Shown here one piece after another: positions 3-12,350 of a DNA stretch of 64,000 bases. The position numbers and the translations under genes are program-made. The notes beneath the pieces were generated by a model, which worked only from the letters and a program-made list of their open reading frames with translations, did not search any database and was not told the origin of the DNA. This stretch comes from Promethearchaeota archaeon (GTDB lineage: Archaea > Asgardarchaeota > Heimdallarchaeia > Hodarchaeales > Hodarchaeaceae). The stretch spans positions 160,001 through 224,000 of the forward strand of contig JBHLMN010000008.1 of assembly GCA_048938105.1 (NCBI GenBank), read 5' to 3'. Within the stretch, counting starts at the first letter, position 1, and the number at the start of each line of letters is the position of its first letter.

Positions 3-3000
3 GTTGCTTACATAAATAAGACATTACATTCAACTCCAAGTATGGAAGTCTTCTTCCATTATTTTCCAGTAACAGTTCCAATTGATAAAGGATCATGGTT
101 AGCTATTTTCGATTCAGATAATACTCTTATTAGAAACATTACAGTATATGCCTTGGAACCAAACGGCGTTAATCCATGTAGTTCGAACATAATTACCAAT
201 AGCCTTTTTTACATTAAAAATGGAAAAGTTGAGTTTTATCCTGATACAAATATTCAGGGAGGGTTTATCGCAATGGATTTCGATTCTGATGTTCGATGGA
301 AGACTGCAATGAGTTTTGGAGCCAGTGCTATTATCTTTATCGAACCAGAAATCAACATGACTAAAGGAATGGCTTTGGGAAAATCCACACCGACTCCTTT
401 GAATGTTCCCAGGGTTATGATTAAACAAAGCGACTGGAATCTCCTTCAACCACTTTTATCTAATCATAAATACCAATTAAAAGTGAACATGAATTGGGAA
501 AAGCGCCAAGGGATAAATATTCTTGGTTTTCTCAATGCAACGAAAAACATAGCTCCAGATGATACTACCACTATCGAAGATAGCAGAAAAGGGCTATTTC
601 TTATGAGTCATTTTGATACTTATTCGATTATTCCCTCGCTTGCGCCAGGTGTGAGTGATTTGGGAGGTATAGCAACTATGCTAGAAATGGCTCGGAAATA
701 TGGAGTAAAAGCATCACAAGGGGATTTAAAGCGTAATATCTTCTTTTTAGCATTATCAGGCCACTATCAGTCTTTAGCTGGTTCCCGCTATTTTGTTGAG
801 GATTATATGTTTTCTAACGATGATTTCGACGATGACAGGGTATCAAATCCACAGGATGAGGGATTCAGAAATCCTCTAGCGGAACAAATGTGGTTCGGAA
901 TAAATTTAGATTTAACTGGTGACTATAACCTTGCTTCTCCTTTTGCTTATGGTTATTATTACTCTCAATTCTTACCCTATTTGACAGCTGCCAATAGGCG
1001 ACCAGCAGACATGGTACAACGCTATTGGTCCGACTTTGTTGGGAACTGGAGCTCCTACGTTCAAGATGGTCTTCCACCTGAAGAATATACCTTTTTTTCA
1101 ACAGAATTACTTAGTTCTGAACGAGGAACCTTAGATTTTGATCATTTTCAGGATTATATCACAAATCTATATTGGCTCGATTCTGAACCATTTTGGGTTT
1201 CAGGGACAACCAGCATTTCATTAATGACGATCTTTTCATCCAAACAATACAGTAATACCCCTTCTGACACAATTAATTCCTATGGTGGATTAACAGAATT
1301 CGTCGATAATTTAGTTCCTCAAATTGCGATTACTATATACTTAACTGATGAAACAATTAACGATTTCTTTGTCACAAGTGGTGAAACAGATCCAAATCTT
1401 GTTCATGAAGTAAGAAGACAAGGCGCTAGTTGGGCCGAATTTTGTAAATTGTATGGGCGAATAGTCGTTTTTCCACAAGCCAAAGAAGATACGATTAATA
1501 TCAACGCTTCTTGGGTGAGTACTAACATATCGAAAGATGAGGCGGATTTATATGAGCGATCAATCAACCAATCAATTGATGGGCATTTTCTCGTCCAAAT
1601 AACCCATCGAAGCGGTGTTACATATGGGGTTTCAGAGATTATTATGGCTGATGATGATACAGGATTCTTTAATGTAACAGGTCTTCATAACAGAAATATG
1701 GGAGGATTAGCCTCGGGTGGATCTTTTAGAATTGAAATTTTTTATTTAACAGATAAAGGTCAAATCTTGTATGTCACTGATAGAGGTAATTTTGGTACCC
1801 CATCAACACTTGTAGTGAACCGTCCGATACTAGGTGACCCTAGATTTCGTGAAGGCGTTCACCGTCAGCTTGGTCAAGAAAGAATTGACTATGCAGTATT
1901 TGAATGTGGTAGCTTGGCGATTTACAACGTTTTAAATCCCCGAAATTTACTTGATCCACAAAGTGAATCAACAGTTAACCGTCAAGCTGATAGAATTACA
2001 GTTACAGAAGTATTCAATTATAACGTGATCGAAGTTGGAACAGGCTCTCAACCCCAACGATTTTTTGCCTCATTCGATCCTTATGGTAACGCAATGGTTT
2101 TTGCGAAAGGAGACGAACCTATTCGAATACGAGTTTTTGGAGGTGAAGAGTATCCAATTGCTGTGTTAACAAACTCAACCAATCAGGATATTCAAGGTCT
2201 AGGTTTGAGAACACAGATAGGTACAATCACACCTATATATCATGCGATTTATAAATCCACAAAAGATTTCTGGGTAATTACTGAAGACCGAATAACTCGG
2301 ATGAAAGCATTTAATGTTCATAATCCATCAGCAGAAGAAACACATCAACGAGCAACGGAATTACTACTCGTTGCTGAAGATGCTCTTTTTGCTTCTGATC
2401 CAGATTATTACACATATTATATTAATATAATAAATGCTTATTCCCTTGAAAGAGAAGCTTATGCTTCAACAAGGTCCGCCATGCTAAATGTAATTCAAAG
2501 TACAGTCTTCTTTTTCGTACTATTGTTACCATTTGCATTTATATTTGAAAGGTTAGTATTCAATTATAGTGGTTTAAAACGAATTATTTCTCTTGTCGGG
2601 ATATTTATTTTCTTCAATTTATTAATATTTTTCTTTCAACCAGGGTATCATTTAGCCAGTAATGTCTTTATGGTAGGTATTGGTTTTATTATGATAGTAT
2701 TGAGTATTCCTGTCTTAGTAATTCTAGGGAATGATGCCTATAATTATCTACAAGAAGTCAGAAAGAAAGTTATTGGGGAACATTTTGCGGAATTTGGCAG
2801 AATCGAAGCTGGTCTTGTGTCTTTTGGGGTAGCTATTAGTAATCTTCGCAAACGACGATTTTCAACGGCATTAACAGTTATATCTATCACATTGATTACT
2901 TTTAGCCTAGTGAGTTTCGTTTCTGTTTCCTCTGCTGCAGAGGTAAGAGCTACTCCTTTAAAAGCTGATTATATTGGATATAATGGCCTTTTAATACAGA

Positions 3001-4592
3001 GAATTGGTGTAGGACGACAAAAACTATCGTATGACTTGCTTGATTATCTTGAGGCTTATAATATACCTGGAAATAATGTTTCAGTCGTCCCAAGGATTTG
3101 GTCAGATCCATTACAAGGTTCAAATTGGTATATTATATCAGAATATGAAGGAAAATTCTCAAAAGGGAATATTGGTGCAATATTAGGACTTAAACCTCAG
3201 GAGATAGATTTTCTAGACTACAAGTCTATCCTCATCGGTGAATGGTTTTCAAATGAGTCATATAATGAGGTTATTCTACCAACAAAACTAGCTAACATAC
3301 TATTTACTCAAGGGGTAAATGAAACAATTGGACAAGAGATCCACGTTCGTGGAGTGGATTTAAAGGTTGTTGGCTTGATAAACACTTCTAAACTGATACA
3401 ACCCCTTAATGAGACTTTTGATAACCTAGCAAGAACATTAGACCAAGAGGATATAACTCCAATCAGTGATAAAGGTAATCATTTTAGTCTTGATGAAACT
3501 ATCATCATTCCTTTCAATTTAGCAGCAGATAATCCTTGGAACTCTTATAAAAAAGGGATATACCTTAGTCTGGCTCAAATTGCACTTAAATTTGAATCAG
3601 ATATTACTTGGGATGAACTCCAAGATATTACCATAAATCTTCGAAAATCATTGCCTCTATTAGACATCTATATTGGTTTACAACAACCAACCGACAAAAA
3701 TCCATTTGCAGGTATTTATGCAGAATATAGGAAAGGTCAATCGTTCCAATTAATTGGTATTGAGACATTGATTATTCCTGTCATTATTGCTGTCTCTGTT
3801 GTTGCAGGTACGGTTCTCTCGGCGGTTCAACAACAATTGAAGGAGATTGAAGTTTATAATGCTCTTGGACTTTCACCAGAGAACGTTGGATTTATGTATT
3901 TTGCTCAGTCCTTAGTCTATGGCTTATTGGGAGGAGTATTTGGTTATTCCATCGGTATGGTTATTTTGGCATTTCTGGAACAATTTTCTCTTCTACCAGC
4001 CACTTTTGTCCCAAATTATACAGGTTTCTCAGTAATCTTAGCGATTGGCCTTAGTATTGCTTCAGTCATTGTTGCAAGTATCATTCCTATTCGAAAAGCG
4101 GTGTTATTATCTCTTCCTAGTTTACAACGTAAATGGCAGATTGCTACAAAGCCAGAAGAAGATACTTGGTTGGTTCCTTTTCCCTTCTCTACTGCTTCCT
4201 TAGATGAAGCTCAAGGCGTGATCCACTTCTTATGGGAATACTTTGAATCCCATCGTAGTGAAGGAATTGGTTCGTTCGCGGTTCTTGAAAGCCATATAAA
4301 GGTTATAAGTAAAAAACGGATTGAATTCATTGGTCAAACACGTTTAGCACCTTGGAACTGGGGAATCGTTCAAGACTTCAATATAGTTACAGAATATAAC
4401 GAGGAAGAAGAGAAATATCTTTTTGAAAACACTATTAACCGAATTTCTGGTGAACGAGGAAAATGGGAAAAGGTTAACGAAAAGCGATTCTTCAGAGACA
4501 TAAGAAAACAATTGCTACTTTGGAGAGGTATTGATCTAAAGAAAAGAGAATATCATATTGAAGAAGGTAAAAAATTGATTGGAGAAATCTAA
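3..4592 (+). CDS. Giant membrane protein: PA/M28-peptidase-like extracytoplasmic domain fused to MacB/FtsX-like ABC permease domains (probably 5'-truncated by the window edge)
   Basis: The frame is open from nt 3 to the ORF-track ATG at 42. M28-like motifs SHFD, APGVSDLGGIATMLE, LSGHYQSLAGS and INLDL are present. There are two TM bundles with FtsX-like 'NLRKRRFSTALTVISITL' and 'KEIEVYNALGLSP...YFAQSLVYGLLGG'. Confidence 0.75.
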   Translation, partial: VAYINKTLHSTPSMEVFFHYFPVTVPIDKGSWLAIFDSDNTLIRNITVYALEPNGVNPCSSNIITNSLFYIKNGKVEFYPDTNIQGGFIAMDFDSDVRWKTAMSFGASAIIFIEPEINMTKGMALGKSTPTPLNVPRVMIKQSDWNLLQPLLSNHKYQLKVNMNWEKRQGINILGFLNATKNIAPDDTTTIEDSRKGLFLMSHFDTYSIIPSLAPGVSDLGGIATMLEMARKYGVKASQGDLKRNIFFLALSGHYQSLAGSRYFVEDYMFSNDDFDDDRVSNPQDEGFRNPLAEQMWFGINLDLTGDYNLASPFAYGYYYSQFLPYLTAANRRPADMVQRYWSDFVGNWSSYVQDGLPPEEYTFFSTELLSSERGTLDFDHFQDYITNLYWLDSEPFWVSGTTSISLMTIFSSKQYSNTPSDTINSYGGLTEFVDNLVPQIAITIYLTDETINDFFVTSGETDPNLVHEVRRQGASWAEFCKLYGRIVVFPQAKEDTININASWVSTNISKDEADLYERSINQSIDGHFLVQITHRSGVTYGVSEIIMADDDTGFFNVTGLHNRNMGGLASGGSFRIEIFYLTDKGQILYVTDRGNFGTPSTLVVNRPILGDPRFREGVHRQLGQERIDYAVFECGSLAIYNVLNPRNLLDPQSESTVNRQADRITVTEVFNYNVIEVGTGSQPQRFFASFDPYGNAMVFAKGDEPIRIRVFGGEEYPIAVLTNSTNQDIQGLGLRTQIGTITPIYHAIYKSTKDFWVITEDRITRMKAFNVHNPSAEETHQRATELLLVAEDALFASDPDYYTYYINIINAYSLEREAYASTRSAMLNVIQSTVFFFVLLLPFAFIFERLVFNYSGLKRIISLVGIFIFFNLLIFFFQPGYHLASNVFMVGIGFIMIVLSIPVLVILGNDAYNYLQEVRKKVIGEHFAEFGRIEAGLVSFGVAISNLRKRRFSTALTVISITLITFSLVSFVSVSSAAEVRATPLKADYIGYNGLLIQRIGVGRQKLSYDLLDYLEAYNIPGNNVSVVPRIWSDPLQGSNWYIISEYEGKFSKGNIGAILGLKPQEIDFLDYKSILIGEWFSNESYNEVILPTKLANILFTQGVNETIGQEIHVRGVDLKVVGLINTSKLIQPLNETFDNLARTLDQEDITPISDKGNHFSLDETIIIPFNLAADNPWNSYKKGIYLSLAQIALKFESDITWDELQDITINLRKSLPLLDIYIGLQQPTDKNPFAGIYAEYRKGQSFQLIGIETLIIPVIIAVSVVAGTVLSAVQQQLKEIEVYNALGLSPENVGFMYFAQSLVYGLLGGVFGYSIGMVILAFLEQFSLLPATFVPNYTGFSVILAIGLSIASVIVASIIPIRKAVLLSLPSLQRKWQIATKPEEDTWLVPFPFSTASLDEAQGVIHFLWEYFESHRSEGIGSFAVLESHIKVISKKRIEFIGQTRLAPWNWGIVQDFNIVTEYNEEEEKYLFENTINRISGERGKWEKVNEKRFFRDIRKQLLLWRGIDLKKREYHIEEGKKLIGEI

Positions 4593-4598
4593 TGTAAG

Positions 4599-5327
4599 AT
4601 GAATGTGTTTGTGGATAAAGTGACCTCTACTGAAAGTGTTCCATTGAAGCAAGCTCCATTATTTGTCAAAAAGCTTGATGGGCTTGGATATCTAGGAAAT
4701 TGGCATCAAGTCCGCGGAACGATCTATATCACATTGCAAAACTTACCAGGAGCAATTTTAAGGTCCTTGACTATTTCAAAAAAACGGATAGGGGTAGCAG
4801 AAAATATCTGGGTATTTTCATCTCATCTTCCCATCATAAATCCAAAAATAATGATTGAAAAGCGGGAATATTTTAGGAATTTGTTTCAACGTTTAAAAGG
4901 GGAAGAATGTATGTTAGAGTGGGAGGGTATTATATCGAGAAAAATGCAATGGCGAAAAAATCCTCAACTATCAAAGTTTTTTTCTAAAATGGATAAAAAA
5001 CCATCGAATTTACTAATGAACACTCTCATTGCTGAAAGCAGGATTTCAGATTTAACAAAGAAATTAAAACCTGATAGAATCATAATATCTGTTTCAGGGG
5101 GTGTTATTCCTCCTCCAATTGAGGGAGCAAAATTTGAGTATTATTCTAAAAGACAGTCCGATCTCTTCAATAATCCGATTGAATGTACTTGGTATACACA
5201 AATTAAGAAACAGTTCTATCTAACTAGAAGGATATCAAAAGCTCTTGAATATATTTTGTTATTATTAGACAAAATCATGGAACAACAGTTAAGAGTTACA
5301 CGAAAAATTTCCGAGGAGTTGATATGA
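4599..5327 (+). CDS. Hypothetical soluble basic protein (242 aa) within the membrane operon
   Basis: Long ORF packed 6 nt after the upstream stop and 0 nt before the next start; no recognisable motif. Confidence 0.6.
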   Translation: MNVFVDKVTSTESVPLKQAPLFVKKLDGLGYLGNWHQVRGTIYITLQNLPGAILRSLTISKKRIGVAENIWVFSSHLPIINPKIMIEKREYFRNLFQRLKGEECMLEWEGIISRKMQWRKNPQLSKFFSKMDKKPSNLLMNTLIAESRISDLTKKLKPDRIIISVSGGVIPPPIEGAKFEYYSKRQSDLFNNPIECTWYTQIKKQFYLTRRISKALEYILLLLDKIMEQQLRVTRKISEELI

Positions 5328-8150
5328 GTGTCTACAGATCCAATAATAGAAACCTTGGAGCAAATAATTAACAATAGTTTTCCTTTAACCTTCGATACAT
5401 CGTTTCTGATCTGGTCTTCATGTTTTATAGTGATCATAACTTATGGAATTACTCAAATTGTGAACAAATATCTCAAGCATTCAGCTGTTGCTAGAATTAG
5501 TGAATTACAGTTTAAGGGTATAACGATTGTTATTCTCTCCTCTTTCCTGATGACTATCCTCGTTTCATTAGGATTCCCCCTTGGCGCTCCATATGCAGAC
5601 CATCCCCTCTCCATTTTAGATATGCTTACCACAAGCCCGTTAATCATTTTTAATCTCGGTCTTCTTGGCCTTGGTGTGATTTTAGGTTTTATGGTAGGAT
5701 TATTACCGTTCTATTGGATACATAAAAGGGAAAATATAGAAATTATCAAAGAAACTAAATCTGGATCAATCGAAAGAGAACCACAAAAACCTGGAACGGT
5801 TCCGATTATCCCTTTCATTGTCCTTCTAATCTTAATTACAGCAATTATATTTTTTATAGCTGATTTATGGAATACTCATCGTGTAACAGTTCAAGCTTTT
5901 GAAATAGCTTTTTTTATCTATCTTTTTTGTCTTTTTATTGTTGTATCTTATCCTATTGCTAGAATAATATTACTAGCAATTCCTACAAAAAGATTGACTG
6001 AAGCTGGAATCTCCGAAGGTGCTACGTTAATAGCTATAATCGGAGCAATGATTGGTCCTTTCATTGCAGTGTTTGTATTGAATATTACAGCATTTGTAGT
6101 TCCATTCGTTGGTTTAACAACACCTGATATTTCAGTTTGGACATATAATGGAGAATTTACCCATATTATAGGGCCATTGATTCTAGTGGGTGTACTTATG
6201 ATTCTTCATCGTGTCCTTCATTGGGGGGGTTCAAAAAGGGGACTAAATTTTGCTGAGATAGGAATCATATATACTACTCTATCAATCTCGAGTATCTTTG
6301 CTATTATGCCAATGTGGATTATTCGCTTTCTAGTATTTGAGTTCTTCAAAGGTGCTGGCGCAGTTGGAGGGGCAACAGGTTCTTTTATTCCTTCTGTATG
6401 GATTCCATCATGGCCAACAGCTATTGATAATATGGTGTTAGGAGGTGAACCAACTTGGGGATATTGGGTTATTCCAATTCTCTTTTGGTCTTTATATTTT
6501 ATTACTTGGGGAATAGTCCAATTTTCAAGTGCTGTCTTAAACAGACAACAATGGATAGAAGTTGAAAGGCTTAATTTTCCAGTGGCTCAAGCAATAGTAG
6601 AATCCTTCAAAGCGGGGGAGATTGAGGGGCTTGAAGAAAAGAGTAGAGTTTTTGGAATCTCCCCATTTTGGTTAGGAGGTATTTTAGCATTCCTTCTCTA
6701 TATTCCTCGGCTATTGAGTGCACTTTCCGTAAGAGAAATCATTCCTTTTGACTTTTCTGTTCCAGAATTCATGAATTGGTTATACTATGATAACATTGAT
6801 GAACTGGGAATACAAGTAGCACAGACAATTTTCGGTGGAAGTGCAAATCGTGTTACTCTAAATATTAATTTCGCTCCAATATGGATTGCTTTTGCTTTTC
6901 TCGTACCTATCGATATTCTTTTAGGAGCCATTATATGGTATTTTACTTTTTATATTGTTTTACCACCAATCCAAGTTAGTTTGGGTTTATACGACAATCC
7001 CCCAAACCAGGATGTCGGTACAAATTACATATTTGTCGGCCATCGTGCAGGTGCTGTGGGTACGATTTGGGAATTCCCCATACCCATATTTGGAGAAACT
7101 TTGAGTATTGGTGGTCTTTTCCCTCACTTCATTTCCAGAGGAATGTGGATTGGTTTTCCTCTTGCGCTAATCTGGTTTAATAGGCGGTATTTTGGACAAA
7201 CGATTAGAAAAGCATTTGGAAGAGTCCAAACTTCTGATAATGAAGATGATTATCGCTTTGCATATTTAGGTATCATTATTGGAATGCTCATATTAGTTAT
7301 TCTTAACTTGATGTCTGGAATGGGCGAGTTAGCTTTTGTATTTCCCCTATTTTTCTTATTGATTTATTGGACATGGACAAGAGTTCGTGCAGAATCGGGA
7401 TTCATGTCATTTTTCATGATGTTTGGCCCCTGGTACCATGAAATGGAAGCTCTGCCCTATATTTATTGGCACATGACTCCAGAAAGAAATTTTAGTGGTT
7501 TGCCTATTTCAGTAGCAGACACTAATAGTCAACAAATGTCTACATCAGGTATAATGTTCATTTACCTTTCTACAGACAGAGCACTAGGAGCAGCACCTCA
7601 ACCAGCTAGTATGGAAAGCTTCAAATTAGCAGATATGGCTGGTGTTTCTAGTAGGTCTATTTACCCTCTTCAAATTTTAGCTATCATTTTTGGAGTAATA
7701 ATTGTCTTTCCATTGGTAATATGGGGGACTCACTATTTTGGATGGACTAATTTCAAAGAATTTAGCGAATTTGACTTTGGGTTATGGGAAGGAGCTGTTG
7801 GTTCTAATGTCACAGGTGATAAAATCACAGGTCTTCCTCCAGAGTGGCAAGGTTGGATACTTCAGTTCTTATTAGGTATTCCACTGGCATTTTTAATCGA
7901 ATGGGCCCGTAATATGTTCTTGTGGTTCCCTATTTCAGTCCCAGCAATCATATATGGCGATGCTGCAATGACTGGTATGGGTCTCTTTATTCCGAATATT
8001 ATTGCTTATATCTTAAAAGTATTGATTTTCAGATATGGTGGAACCAGGATCTATGAAAAAGTAGCTTTTCCGTTAGCTGCTGGTTTCTTTATTTTTGGTC
8101 TTTCCGCTTTCTGGCTTTCAGAAGGAATTGGACAACACGCAGGTCTATAA
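5328..8150 (+). CDS. Polytopic membrane protein, OPT-superfamily-like (DUF6785/DUF6784-like), with an extra N-terminal TM region
   Basis: Many hydrophobic helices; 'QWIEVERLNFPVAQ', 'RVRAESG' and 'FRYGG..YEK..P.A.G' motifs; SD-like GAGGAG upstream of the GTG start. Confidence 0.65.
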   Translation: MSTDPIIETLEQIINNSFPLTFDTSFLIWSSCFIVIITYGITQIVNKYLKHSAVARISELQFKGITIVILSSFLMTILVSLGFPLGAPYADHPLSILDMLTTSPLIIFNLGLLGLGVILGFMVGLLPFYWIHKRENIEIIKETKSGSIEREPQKPGTVPIIPFIVLLILITAIIFFIADLWNTHRVTVQAFEIAFFIYLFCLFIVVSYPIARIILLAIPTKRLTEAGISEGATLIAIIGAMIGPFIAVFVLNITAFVVPFVGLTTPDISVWTYNGEFTHIIGPLILVGVLMILHRVLHWGGSKRGLNFAEIGIIYTTLSISSIFAIMPMWIIRFLVFEFFKGAGAVGGATGSFIPSVWIPSWPTAIDNMVLGGEPTWGYWVIPILFWSLYFITWGIVQFSSAVLNRQQWIEVERLNFPVAQAIVESFKAGEIEGLEEKSRVFGISPFWLGGILAFLLYIPRLLSALSVREIIPFDFSVPEFMNWLYYDNIDELGIQVAQTIFGGSANRVTLNINFAPIWIAFAFLVPIDILLGAIIWYFTFYIVLPPIQVSLGLYDNPPNQDVGTNYIFVGHRAGAVGTIWEFPIPIFGETLSIGGLFPHFISRGMWIGFPLALIWFNRRYFGQTIRKAFGRVQTSDNEDDYRFAYLGIIIGMLILVILNLMSGMGELAFVFPLFFLLIYWTWTRVRAESGFMSFFMMFGPWYHEMEALPYIYWHMTPERNFSGLPISVADTNSQQMSTSGIMFIYLSTDRALGAAPQPASMESFKLADMAGVSSRSIYPLQILAIIFGVIIVFPLVIWGTHYFGWTNFKEFSEFDFGLWEGAVGSNVTGDKITGLPPEWQGWILQFLLGIPLAFLIEWARNMFLWFPISVPAIIYGDAAMTGMGLFIPNIIAYILKVLIFRYGGTRIYEKVAFPLAAGFFIFGLSAFWLSEGIGQHAGL

Positions 8151-8168
8151 TGATGAGTTGATGATTTT

Positions 8169-10199
8169 ATGGCAGAAATTGATACGTCTCCTGAGAACAA
8201 TGAAACAATTGAAGAACAGGAAGGATCAGAAGAAGAATTACTTCCAACATTTAGGGAGGATCCCAAATGGAAGAGTGGTGCGAGTTGGAGGGTTGGATTA
8301 GCAATTATTTATGGGACTATTGTTCTTCAACCAGCTTCAATTTGGCTGAGTTGGACCGTAGGTTTACAACCTTGGCAACTTATAAGTAGTTTTGAGTATA
8401 GTGCAATCCTTCTGTTTGCAACTCTTGCAGCAAGATCGGGCAAAGACCTTAGTCGTCAGGAAGCATTTGTTCTATTTTCAAATGTAGGAACTACAATCGT
8501 TGAAGCTCTTGCCGCAAATTTAATCTTCTTTTACTATTTCACAAGAAAATCTCCTGCAGCTCTTCAATGGGGATTCAGTTTTGAAGGTGCAAATCCTGCT
8601 CCAGACTGGTTTGCTCCTATAGTTGATATCGGACGAACTTTTCTAGATATAGCTTGGATACCCTCCATATTATTATGGATCATTATCTTCGGGATTTTAG
8701 TAAAATTAGTTGATTTATCAGTTGGATTCTTAGCGTATCAACTCTTCGTTGTTGAGGAGCGACTTCCATTTCCTGGAGCTCAAGTATGGGCTAATGCTTG
8801 CATCACAATAACGGAAAAAGCCAAAATGCCTCGTAAAGGACGAGTTTTAGTCTTTTCATCAATGATCGGGATTGCGTTTTCTTTAATCTTTCATGCAACT
8901 TGGATTCTCACAGGATCACCGCTTTTAATAAATCCCTGGATGGATATGACTGGAGTCTTAGAATCAGTAGGAATGGAAGGTGCAAGTTTCGGCTTGTTAC
9001 TTGATCTAATTTTGTTCGCAGGAGGCTTCGTCATGCCGTTTAAAATGGCTTTTTCAATTTTTATTGGTGGTTTCATTGGATACTTTGTGACAGGAATCCT
9101 AATTAGGCAAAATTTTGCTAATTTAGGTTATCTTTATCCTTGGCGATCTGGTGGATATTTTGATGCTAGTAGGATTTTTGAGTTTTTATTATTACGAATT
9201 TGGTTATCACCTATCTTAGGATTGGCAATAGGTGCCGGGATGGTACCCATTATCAGAAATCGAAAGAAAATTATTGATGGATTAAAGAAATTACGAGATA
9301 TTAAGGATATTCGGGAGCGGACAGACATGATACCCCTTTGGTTAATAATTACGATGTTTTTAATGGGGACAGGTGGTTCAATTCTCATTACTCTGATTTT
9401 GGTTCCTGAATTACTTTATCTCATCTGGTTATTAATTCTCTTATCCGTAGTATGGACATTCTTTTATAATATTGTAAACGCAAGAATCATTGGGGAATCT
9501 TGGGTTGGCTTAAATATACCCTATCTGACTCAAGGAGCATATTATGCTGTGAATTATTCTGGATACAAAGCATTTTTCGCACCGCTATTAGTAGGAGGTG
9601 GTGGGGGTGCTGGACAAGGTGGGATTGCACCTGCAGGGTATGGTTGGGCGAGTGTCTTTAAAGCATGCAGGATGACTGAAACTGACATTAAATCATATCT
9701 AAAGATCTATTTCTTCACCTTTCCTTTAACAATGCTTGTTTCATTTCTGTGGGTTCAAGTTTTTTGGCAATTTTCCGATATTCCATCCCAATTATTCTCA
9801 TACACAGCTGATTATTGGCCAGTTTGGGCACGAACTACTTTAATTTGGCCTTACTTAGCTCTAAATCCTGCTCAACAGGAGTTTCAATTAATACACCTAG
9901 ACTGGTTAGGCTTAGCTTTTATTCTTGGATTCACATTGACCTGGGTGATATCTGTATTTGCACTTCCGTTTGAGATGGTAGGGCTTACTATTGGTCTCGC
10001 ACAACCTATTCTTTTCAGTAGTATTACATTCCTAGGAGCACTCTTTGGTAAACTGATGGAAAGGATTAAAGGAAAAGAATGGTGGGGTGAAAACAAGAAT
10101 GTCATAGCCGCAGGATTTGGATTGGGAGAGGGACTCACAATAGCAATATTTGCAGCTATTGCTCTAATTTTCAAGGCAATGTGGATCTGGCCTATTTAA
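8169..10199 (+). CDS. OPT-like (oligopeptide transporter superfamily) membrane protein
   Basis: Highly hydrophobic; 'VEERLPFPGAQV' motif typical of OPT-like proteins; C-terminal 'AAGFGLGEGL'. Confidence 0.65.
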   Translation: MAEIDTSPENNETIEEQEGSEEELLPTFREDPKWKSGASWRVGLAIIYGTIVLQPASIWLSWTVGLQPWQLISSFEYSAILLFATLAARSGKDLSRQEAFVLFSNVGTTIVEALAANLIFFYYFTRKSPAALQWGFSFEGANPAPDWFAPIVDIGRTFLDIAWIPSILLWIIIFGILVKLVDLSVGFLAYQLFVVEERLPFPGAQVWANACITITEKAKMPRKGRVLVFSSMIGIAFSLIFHATWILTGSPLLINPWMDMTGVLESVGMEGASFGLLLDLILFAGGFVMPFKMAFSIFIGGFIGYFVTGILIRQNFANLGYLYPWRSGGYFDASRIFEFLLLRIWLSPILGLAIGAGMVPIIRNRKKIIDGLKKLRDIKDIRERTDMIPLWLIITMFLMGTGGSILITLILVPELLYLIWLLILLSVVWTFFYNIVNARIIGESWVGLNIPYLTQGAYYAVNYSGYKAFFAPLLVGGGGGAGQGGIAPAGYGWASVFKACRMTETDIKSYLKIYFFTFPLTMLVSFLWVQVFWQFSDIPSQLFSYTADYWPVWARTTLIWPYLALNPAQQEFQLIHLDWLGLAFILGFTLTWVISVFALPFEMVGLTIGLAQPILFSSITFLGALFGKLMERIKGKEWWGENKNVIAAGFGLGEGLTIAIFAAIALIFKAMWIWPI

Positions 10200-10205
10200 G
10201 TTACC

Positions 10206-12350
10206 TTACAGAGTATTATTTGCAAATTCAACATCAATATAAGCATCAATTAATTGATTAGCTATAGCAGTTGATTGTTGATCAGTGGAATTAAAAAAAG
10301 CACAATCATAAAAATCACTATCGGATTCTCCATCAATCCCCCCGCCTCCATTCCACTCTGTTGGGTCAAGATCTATCTCTCGGGTGGAATCAAATTCTTC
10401 CAATCCAATCAGTAAATAGAATCTCATTATTGGACTATATATCTTATTTCTAGGAACGCGGAATTCCAACCAATTATCTGTAGTTGATAATTGATAATCG
10501 TTTTCATTAGCATCAAATATGAGTTGCCAGTTAAATATATCTTCCGTATTAAAGCATTCAATGTTACGACCGATCTTAAGTAACCGTTCACAGGATGAAT
10601 TCAAGGTTGTCTCTGCTTCCGTAATTTCCAAGAGACCATTGTCATCATTATGTACTTGGTCAGTATCAATTCCTAGATAAATCATCGCTAAATCTTGTCC
10701 GATTGGACTTTGCCACCCAACTTGTGTAAAATTAACTACTTGAAGCAAAAAGTAAAAATAGTTACTATTTATAATTATACGTAACTCTAACAAGTCACAA
10801 TAATTCTTTGTAGCAAAAATTCTATTTGGACTGGGATATGAGTAATCTCCATCTCCTATATCATCATTCAAAGCATCTTTCCAAATAATTTCACCCTCAA
10901 TAAATACTTGTGAATTTACTGAAAGATTTTCAGGGAGTTTTTGCCAATCAGCAATCGAAAAATCATTGAGATCTCGGATAGAACCAGTAATATAGCTTTC
11001 GTTTTGATTTTCTAGAAATTGAAAACTACCTAAATAAAGGATAGGTATTATAATCATTGGGATCAGACAAATCACGATTGAAAATGGTAGATTTTGCCAA
11101 GGAATTTTCGCAAGATCTTTAAAATATCGTTTAAAAGAATCTGTTAGATGAGTTAATCCTTTTAAGGATTCTATTTCCCCATATATTGCATATTTGAATA
11201 AATTTTCGATGAATATTCCACAACATATTGTTATTGGTATTTCAAAAAGAGTAAGATATTGAGGCCATCTTGTAGTCCAAAAGATCAAAAAAATAACGTT
11301 TGCACTATAAAAAAGTATGATTGTCCAGTATTTTCTTGATGAACTACTTTCTTGGGAGTTAAAAGCTAATAAAAATAGCAAAAAAATCCCAAAGATGGAT
11401 CCTACAAAGATTATTCCATCAAGATATATTATTGGAAAATTCTGATGCCATATCGTTGGATTTGAGTCCCCTAATAACCATTCAAATTGACGAAGGAGAT
11501 TTGGATCCTTTACACCCTCTGATTGAGAGTAATCATAATGATAGCTAAATGAACTAACGAAGGCCAATGGATTATTTAGAATCCTTGGATTAAAAATGCA
11601 AAAAGCAATCAGAAATATTAGTAGCCAAATAATCGGTTTATGAAATATTTTTGTACAAATAAATACTAAACTTTTGAATTTGGACATCTTAAGAGTAATT
11701 AGATTTTTAATCTTGCTTTCCTCATTCAACAGACAGATTCCTAAGAAAATAATTCCAACAGTGATCATTGCATGATATTTTGAAGCAAATGCTGCCGCAA
11801 CTAAGATTGCACTTGATTTCCACCAGAAATTATTAGTATCTTTTATTTTAATAAAAGCAATTATCGCTAAAATACTAAAGAAGCAAAGACTCGCTTCTAA
11901 ATAGGCTTGTGATGTATACTTAATTGAAAACGAAGAAACTGACCAAAGAAGTGCAGAAGTGAAACCAAATTCTTTCCATAAAATTATTGCAACCCCTGTT
12001 GCTAGTAAAATAGATATTAACCTACATGCAATAAAATTATCCATCTTGAAAAGGGATCCTTCCCCTACAAAGATAATACCTATTGCAAATAGAATTTTCG
12101 CTAATAATGGGTGTTCTGGATTGTCTTCGGAAGTAATGATCTCCCCCCAGTTCCAGTTTAGAAGAGATTTTGCATACATCTCTGCTATTGGAACATATAC
12201 AAACTCATCAAAATCCCCCTCCCCAGTCTCATACATCGTAGTTGCAGCTTGGAGACGTAATCCAATTGAACAAATGATTATAATACTAAGAGATAGAATC
12301 TGTATTATTAACTTGGGTGAGAATTCTTTAAAATTATTGTATGGTTTCAT
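10206..12350 (-). CDS. GT-C fold (GT39/PMT-like) membrane glycosyltransferase fused to a C-terminal glucodextranase DOMON-like carbohydrate-binding domain
   Basis: 'DFDEFVY' acidic loop after TM1, 'EHPLLAK', about 10 TM helices and 'ASKY'; C-terminal 'DDIGDGDYSYP...DLLELRI...IDT...EWNGGGG' resembles Glucodextran_C/DOMON. Confidence 0.7.
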   Translation of the reverse strand: MKPYNNFKEFSPKLIIQILSLSIIIICSIGLRLQAATTMYETGEGDFDEFVYVPIAEMYAKSLLNWNWGEIITSEDNPEHPLLAKILFAIGIIFVGEGSLFKMDNFIACRLISILLATGVAIILWKEFGFTSALLWSVSSFSIKYTSQAYLEASLCFFSILAIIAFIKIKDTNNFWWKSSAILVAAAFASKYHAMITVGIIFLGICLLNEESKIKNLITLKMSKFKSLVFICTKIFHKPIIWLLIFLIAFCIFNPRILNNPLAFVSSFSYHYDYSQSEGVKDPNLLRQFEWLLGDSNPTIWHQNFPIIYLDGIIFVGSIFGIFLLFLLAFNSQESSSSRKYWTIILFYSANVIFLIFWTTRWPQYLTLFEIPITICCGIFIENLFKYAIYGEIESLKGLTHLTDSFKRYFKDLAKIPWQNLPFSIVICLIPMIIIPILYLGSFQFLENQNESYITGSIRDLNDFSIADWQKLPENLSVNSQVFIEGEIIWKDALNDDIGDGDYSYPSPNRIFATKNYCDLLELRIIINSNYFYFLLQVVNFTQVGWQSPIGQDLAMIYLGIDTDQVHNDDNGLLEITEAETTLNSSCERLLKIGRNIECFNTEDIFNWQLIFDANENDYQLSTTDNWLEFRVPRNKIYSPIMRFYLLIGLEEFDSTREIDLDPTEWNGGGGIDGESDSDFYDCAFFNSTDQQSTAIANQLIDAYIDVEFANNTL

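Follow-up and report, generated by a model that had tools for sequence, protein, structure and literature searches.

A conserved gene module of archaea and bacteria that combines a pseudo-M28/FtsX giant protein with two OPT-like membrane proteins

The 64,000-nt stretch of DNA analysed here (the window, G000:C49:160001-224000) belongs to the genome of a Hodarchaeales archaeon of the Asgard group (G000; other G numbers denote other genomes and L numbers the loci examined). It opens with four genes, I, J, K and L, which encode a giant pseudo-M28/FtsX protein, a protein of 242 aa and two large OPT-like membrane proteins. These genes are the downstream half of a module of 11-12 genes. The core of the module across archaea and bacteria consists of the giant, two OPT-superfamily paralogues, an ABC (ATP-binding cassette) ATPase, the PsbP-like protein H and the PqqD-like protein B. 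This conserved partnership between a type VII ABC system and OPT-fold proteins is unprecedented. The initial annotation already knew of no characterised system with this combination; in agreement with that, neither a matching characterised system nor a published description was found, and the literature on DUF6785/DUF6784, on FtsX together with OPT and M28, and on nicastrin in Asgard archaea revealed nothing relevant. As a tentative reading, with a probability somewhat short of even, we propose ATP-assisted capture of extracellular glycan fragments and their import via the OPT-like pair. The interpretation given in the initial annotation finds partial support: there is a genuine and conserved machine, while its cargo and transport direction are inferred.

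Conservation and gene content of the module

A pattern scan with one genome per species yielded 47 loci. Full-length giants were found in Bathyarchaeia, Thermoprotei, Armatimonadota, Planctomycetota, Desulfobacteraceae/Thermodesulfobacteriota and many Poribacteria. Since full-length relatives thus exist in six other groups of bacteria and archaea, the idea of an Asgard-specific invention was rejected. Neighbouring genes outside the genus of G000 were detected with hidden Markov models (HMMs) made from the families of the genus. An OPT-like neighbour is present in 37 of the 38 loci with a giant that contains a MacB-like periplasmic core domain (PCD), and the junctions often overlap or measure less than 20 nt. 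None of the seven loci whose giant is without PCD has such a neighbour. The gene order is K-I-L in Bathyarchaeia and Thermoprotei, F-E-I-K-L-H-B in Desulfobacteraceae (F, a minimal FtsX protein; E, an ATPase) and I-L-L-H-B-E in Poribacteria. The K protein of Desulfobacteraceae is a canonical DUF6785+DUF6784 protein (E 1e-162). The phyletic distribution of the H family equals that of the giant, and an all-against-all clustering of the flanks returned only module families as common across phyla.

In the set of 399 Asgard genomes only one genus carries the giant, if two strong partial matches in other families are set aside. Both lie on short contigs (G380:C428:177-1400 and G106:C60:2182-3495), which are either rare carriers or mis-binned. 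Within the genus, 12 genomes share the gene set of the module. DUF6785 is likewise found in 12 genomes of the genus, always immediately upstream of the PCD-bearing giant, and the only other matches in the Asgard set are two marginal partial ones (G042, G353). Hodarchaeales/Kariarchaeaceae is the label of the nearest named homologues, and the recovered loci bear the titles Hodarchaeota/Heimdallarchaeota.

The genome of G000 contains the module twice. A blastp comparison of the 12 products with all open reading frames (ORFs) of the genome identified a paralogous module at C14:284778-308387 (L036, L037), which comprises homologues of B, H, G, F, E, D, K, I, L and J as well as a second giant of 1252 aa. 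Identities range from 23 to 69% and the order differs. According to the family HMMs each specific component has exactly two copies in the genome. The type-1 order B, H, G-F-E-D, an unknown protein of ~800 aa, K-I-L, J is kept in the eight species of the genus examined. The type-2 order of the window occurs in one other species only (G004), the giant of which is 68% identical. The initial annotation had suggested a multi-subunit complex and had left its co-conservation to a neighbourhood survey, which now finds the module both duplicated within the genome and recurring across at least seven phylum-level groups.

The four genes of the window lie on the plus strand. Gene I occupies window positions 3..4592 and is open at its 5' end, gene J (242 aa) 4599..5327, gene K (940 aa, Pfam DUF6785) 5328..8150 and gene L (676 aa, Pfam OPT) 8169..10199. 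The tightly packed, co-directional arrangement first described was found again, with gaps of 6, 0 and 18 nt, and Pfam likewise returned the domains that had been recognised by eye (Peptidase_M28, MacB_PCD and FtsX in gene I, DUF6785 in gene K and OPT in gene L). The GC content is unremarkable (0.33-0.39) and the base composition uniform. The upstream contig provided the N-terminus of gene I, which starts with an ATG at G000:C49:159637, 363 nt before the window, and encodes a protein of 1651 aa with an N-terminal anchor.

It also provided the ABC ATPases. No ATPase had been seen in the visible part of the DNA, which turned out to be an artefact of the window edge; a module without ATPase was rejected, as two intact LolD/MacB-type ATPases, D248 and E261, lie on the minus strand 2.3-3.9 kb upstream (C49:155785-157347). 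They adjoin F202, a minimal FtsX protein of 202 aa on the same strand, which has four transmembrane segments (TMs) and almost no outer loop. The ORFs as listed for F202 and E261 have 52 nt in common (G000:C49:157296-157347). Because the orthologues have 240 aa, E261 most likely starts at Met24, which would give a protein of ~238 aa and a tight F-E junction. The remaining upstream genes encode the Zn-ribbon protein G116 (minus strand) and, on the plus strand, A81 (DUF2116 Zn-ribbon/TM protein), B153 (PqqD family, 30.6 bits, threshold 23.4) and the FtsX permease C991 (991 aa), which together span C49:152013-155736 (L002:10013-13736). H318, also on the plus strand, lies immediately 5' of gene I; it has no Pfam family and is tandem PsbP/Mog1-like.

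The giant protein and its partners

The N-terminus of the giant is a basic stretch followed by a hydrophobic anchor. Hydropathy indicates that this first TM is followed by ~930 residues outside, three TMs, a short cytoplasmic linker and FtsX TM1, then by the outside PCD of ~280 aa, TM2-4 and a cytoplasmic tail of ~160 aa. This predicted topology is self-consistent and would place both the M28 domain and the PCD outside, with an outer part made up of a PA/M28-like pseudo-peptidase and a beta-rich and helical region. The core of the M28-like domain is encoded at window positions 585..974 (plus strand, as are all domains of gene I; Pfam Peptidase_M28, 5.8e-9). The PCD between FtsX TM1 and TM2 follows at 2865..3518 (Pfam MacB_PCD 5e-9, 37.2 bits against a threshold of 27); it is absent from the F202 and B-type paralogues. 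The FtsX module with TM2-TM4 is located at 3774..4103 (Pfam FtsX 1e-11), and a family-specific cytoplasmic C-terminal domain with the motif IRKQLLxWR at 4110..4589.

A profile of the giant built from 16 sequences was matched to solved chains. The best match is to PA-domain aminopeptidases (2ek8, 1e-27, across the PA and M28 parts). MacB (5lil) is matched over the TM and PCD regions with E 1.2e-17, and the FtsX part also matches LolC/LolF. The lolCE equivalog of NCBIfam, with 12.6 bits against a cut-off of 362, is far from being reached. Weaker than the aminopeptidase matches are those to nicalin (2e-9) and the transferrin receptor (7.5e-9); the match to nicastrin is not significant (0.09), and Pfam Nicastrin scores 15-19 bits on the giants, with a threshold of 25.

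The Zn ligands H, D, E, D, H and the general-base Glu of an active M28 aminopeptidase are not found as a set in the giant. In the alignment with the active enzyme 5gne, the catalytic Glu-Glu is replaced by His-Tyr (His-Asn in paralogues). In most sequences from seven lineages Tyr or Phe stands in place of the first His ligand, and 15 of the 16 sequences lack the last one. With metal and catalytic residues degenerate in every lineage, the domain is an ancient pseudo-peptidase, and as the site is dead in all lineages, it is probably a binding module. The giants of Poribacteria are ~2500 aa long; their M28-like domain contains a charged insertion of ~350 aa, probably a coiled-coil, and LysM is matched near the N-terminus (L071:8882-16381).

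Because every giant examined contains only one FtsX module, the protein is predicted to have to dimerise, either with the minimal FtsX protein F202 or with itself. C991 carries the C-terminal domain of the giant without an M28 domain, and occupies the place which in the paralogous C14 module is taken by the PCD-less giant of 1252 aa. The C-terminal domain alone retrieves 1391 cluster representatives (50% identity) at E<=1e-10, and for that reason the family is regarded as large; it is also uncharacterised. In 150 of the 150 matches listed the domain stands at the C-terminus, and most of the full-length proteins among those listed have 1430-1900 aa.

K940 is a polytopic membrane protein with an extra N-terminal block of ~6 TMs (Pfam DUF6785, 1.1e-37). 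L676 is a divergent polytopic member of the OPT family, and its Pfam match (9.7e-9, 34.9 bits, cut-off 25.8) covers positions 105-621 of the 623 of the model. Full-length homology of the two families was detected with hhalign (probability 99.4%, E 2e-21); K is, as judged from these profiles, an OPT-superfamily paralogue of L. With phmmer, neither K nor L matched the sequence of any solved chain in the PDB. Profile and genome scans were needed for K, for which a word-based homologue search returned only five proteins.

The Walker A, Walker B, signature and H-loop motifs of D248 and E261 are intact. Their best NCBIfam matches are LolD/MacB; the LolD equivalog cut-off of 308 is not reached (225-227 bits), and neither is that of 362 by F202 (61.5 bits). 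The predicted fold of H318 (mean pLDDT 85) consists of two domains of the PsbP/Mog1/DcrB/Eag type. A predicted complex of H318 with B153 scores 0.28, where the mark is 0.32. B153 and its bacterial counterparts exceed the Pfam PqqD threshold. A RiPP cluster (ribosomally synthesized and post-translationally modified peptide) was considered as an explanation of the PqqD gene and rejected, since no maturation enzyme is common to the flanks of the 47 loci (ORFs of at least 60 aa).

J242 is modelled as a cytoplasmic protein with an alpha/beta fold and a long C-terminal helix. The initial annotation called it an orphan. As far as the absence of a family is concerned this was correct, since Pfam assigned none to J242 and nine of its homologues; the protein is, however, Hodarchaeales-specific and stands outside the universal core, as the HMMs found J only in Hodarchaeales modules when run on loci across phyla. 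A Foldseek search of the model against the PDB gave nothing at E<=1e-3. The best structural neighbours of the model appear to be the cytosolic domain of CCDC47. Taken together with the nicalin-like ectodomain of the giant, this would relate both prokaryotic proteins to BOS and PAT, accessory complexes of the multipass translocon in eukaryotes, and make the module a machine for biogenesis or quality control of membrane or surface proteins, kept in the archaeal order closest to eukaryotes. We regard this as very improbable. In Desulfobacteraceae a conserved protein of ~210 aa is encoded between the L-like and H-like genes (L061:18874-19500, L069:18590-19225, L081:18597-19247, L094:12104-12712). 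As an analogue of J it is disfavoured by its hydrophobic, signal-peptide-like N-terminus, and it is probably a different, exported protein.

A pseudoenzyme driven by a type VII ABC motor has a precedent, namely FtsEX-EnvC, where a catalytically dead domain is driven in this way. The giant could accordingly be part of a controller of the FtsEX or BceAB type, in which the motor does no more than switch an activity outside the cell or sense flux, and the OPT-like genes are co-regulated and function independently. The pseudoenzyme nature of the ectodomain would fit. On the other hand, K, I and L lie next to each other, with overlapping junctions, in 37 of 38 loci from both domains, which argues for stoichiometric co-assembly, and neither a hydrolase partner nor a kinase is conserved with the module. 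Such a controller is improbable in our view.

Glycan context and possible function

The tentative reading as a glycan capture and import machine is favoured because each of the paralogous Hodarchaeales modules sits in a different glycan locus (GH57 or GH130/GH4). The type-2 module adjoins GH57 genes in both species having it (G000, G004), and the convergence on an alpha-glucan locus noted for the window was borne out by these GH57 alpha-glucan genes. The type-1 module is surrounded by GH130, GH4 and DUF4861 genes, two large unknown paralogues and a RING-like protein (G000, G011); in G000, genes for GH4, GH130 and a zinc-type alcohol dehydrogenase are interspersed among those of the C14 module, and two further GH130 genes are less than 20 kb away. 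Seven of the genomes have contigs of sufficient length, and in five of these a GH130 gene lies no more than 15 kb away from the giant. Unrelated metagenomic relatives adjoin GH116/CBM9/GT2/Wzy genes or GH95/AXE1 genes. The LysM match of the Poribacteria giant is a further point in favour of this reading.

The favoured mechanism can be pictured as follows. The FtsX module of the giant would pair with F202, or with itself where F is absent, and the dimer of the ATPases D and E would complete a type VII ABC mechanotransducer, with the PCD and the doubly tethered pseudo-peptidase ectodomain facing outward. K and L would be paired channels of the secondary-transporter fold beside this motor, and H, B, J and G cytoplasmic adaptors. 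The dead ectodomain would capture extracellular polymer fragments. In this archaeon they would be oligosaccharides or glycoconjugates set free by the surface glycosidases that are encoded nearby. ATP hydrolysis may power a cycle of capture and hand-off outside the membrane, as in type VII ABC systems, and the OPT-like pair may carry the cargo inward. The machine would then be the uptake unit of loci that resemble polysaccharide utilization loci (PULs).

Several points weigh against this proposal. As far as we know, the type VII ABC systems characterised to date all do their work in the outward direction or outside the membrane, and the cargoes known for OPT proteins are peptides and metal chelates rather than sugars. 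Three folds associated with peptides, M28, OPT and PqqD, fit a peptide cargo equally well. The Desulfobacteraceae loci carry glycosyltransferases (GT28_C in five flanking proteins, GT1) and not hydrolases. No carbohydrate-active enzymes (CAZymes) were seen in the flanks of Poribacteria and Thermoprotei, and flank clustering found no enzyme common to the flanks across phyla. CAZymes are moreover common in the carrier organisms, and synteny inside one genus is not independent evidence. The glycan cargo suggested by the initial annotation is thus retained as a lead, in the form of a conserved glycan context, while the cargo itself and the choice between import and export are still matters of inference.

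A role in export or envelope biogenesis is one alternative. The motor would then extract or expel a membrane-associated glycolipid, a lipid-linked glycan or a peptide-derived product. The OPT-fold proteins would serve as flippases or conduits, the ectodomain would receive or position the product at the cell surface, and the PqqD-like, PsbP-like and chaperone-like proteins would deliver the substrate. The characterised relatives MacB, LolCDE, DevCBA, HrtBA and FtsEX are generally known to act outward or outside the membrane. A GT28_C glycosyltransferase-like gene on the same strand precedes the Desulfobacteraceae modules, with GT1 genes nearby. A PMT_2-like GT-C gene is a conserved convergent neighbour of L in G000 and G004, one relative adjoins two GT2 genes and Wzy_C genes, and three cytoplasmic proteins of the module have folds of the peptide- or protein-chaperone type. 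However, the OPT members characterised so far are, to our knowledge, importers, the archaeal contexts are catabolic (GH57, GH130, GH4), and no biosynthetic enzyme or precursor gene is common across phyla. We consider export or envelope biogenesis rather unlikely.

Scavenging of peptides or glycopeptides is a further alternative, in which the ectodomain binds peptide N-termini, the OPT-like pair imports the peptides and the PqqD-like protein binds them in the cytoplasm. The three peptide-associated folds (M28/PA, OPT and PqqD) are independent of each other, an S8 subtilase of 1104 aa flanks one type-1 locus (G009), and the carriers are sediment and sponge heterotrophs. What makes this alternative unlikely is that flank clustering found no protease conserved with the module, that the M28 site is dead in every lineage and that the conserved neighbours in Hodarchaeales are glycosidases and not peptidases.

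Some proteins near the modules are worth recording in their own right. Convergent on L, at window positions 10206-12350 (minus strand), lies a gene of which the 714-aa membrane product fuses a part weakly matched by PMT_2 (GT-C) to a Glucodextran_C binding module; its counterpart in G004 is a PMT_2-like gene of 411 aa at the same position beside L (L095:13577-14812). A 616-aa protein with a GT28_C domain is encoded upstream of the minimal FtsX gene in Desulfobacteraceae. The ~800-aa protein between the ATPase genes and K is found in every type-1 module (L037:1457-3853 and L016:14622-17093, both minus strand). It has only a faint match of the C5-epimerase/(alpha/alpha)6 type and a paralogue of ~620 aa nearby, and may be an unclassified glycoside hydrolase or lyase. 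Homology with the 778-aa neighbour in Bathyarchaeia was tested and not detected. Beside the type-1 modules of two species lie conserved genes for proteins of 871-1029 aa in which zf-RING_2 is weakly matched at the C-terminus (L036:6658-9747, plus strand; L021:15316-17931, minus strand), so that a RING-type domain in an Asgard archaeon is possible.

The module spans both prokaryotic domains and joins two superfamilies which are not known to cooperate, type VII ABC mechanotransducers and OPT-fold permeases. A dead aminopeptidase and the fold of PqqD and RRE (RiPP recognition element) proteins are re-used in it outside their usual settings. If the proposed PUL uptake unit is real, it would be a new route across the cytoplasmic membrane for the import of polymer fragments in archaea and bacteria, and functions could be assigned to DUF6785/DUF6784. 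The carriers, which include Hodarchaeales, Bathyarchaeia, Poribacteria, PVC (Planctomycetes-Verrucomicrobia-Chlamydiae) bacteria and sulfate reducers from sediments and sponges, matter for carbon turnover. Since cultivable groups are represented among the bacterial carriers, the hypothesis can be tested directly.

Comparison with known systems

The closest comparison is with the type VII ABC systems (MacB of MacAB-TolC, LolCDE, FtsEX, BceAB, HrtBA). The module shares with them the four-TM FtsX unit, the MacB-type PCD between TM1 and TM2 and separate ATPases of the LolD/MacB type, and its unlike permeases, the giant and the minimal FtsX protein, are paired as are LolC and LolE. The giant differs by ~950 extra N-terminal extracellular residues, which are doubly anchored, by three extra TMs and by the family-specific cytoplasmic C-terminal domain, and its partner F202 has no outer domain. 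The module as a whole differs by its obligatory OPT-fold, PqqD-like and PsbP-like neighbours and has neither an adaptor nor an outer-membrane partner. All cut-offs of the NCBIfam equivalogs for LolCDE, MacAB and FtsEX are missed by a wide margin.

Among the OPT/YSL proteins (TC 2.A.67; PF03169) and DUF6785/DUF6784, L exceeds the OPT threshold and K belongs to DUF6785. K and L are, in contrast to these families, very divergent, are always two paralogues beside a type VII ABC giant and occur in the context of glycan rather than peptide genes. The ectodomain of the giant resembles the PA-domain M28 aminopeptidases (2ek8; YwaD, 6hc6), but it is fused to an ABC permease. As in nicalin, nicastrin and the transferrin receptor, which have dead M28 ectodomains, catalytic and metal residues are lost; the profile matches gave no evidence that the ectodomain is closer to these eukaryotic pseudo-peptidases than to the bacterial M28 enzymes.

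With the discrete RRE/PqqD proteins of RiPP pathways the module shares the PqqD domain of B153. Unlike those pathways it has no conserved radical-SAM (S-adenosylmethionine) enzyme, protease, cyclase or precursor, and B153 is found beside an ATPase and a PsbP-like protein. The likeness to the SusC/SusD units of PULs is one of functional analogy only. There is no homology, the module belongs to the cytoplasmic membrane, and it would use ATP and presumably a proton gradient instead of TonB. Nevertheless, both combine a surface capture module with an energised channel within glycan-degradation loci, and in both cases paralogous copies of the module stand beside different CAZyme sets.

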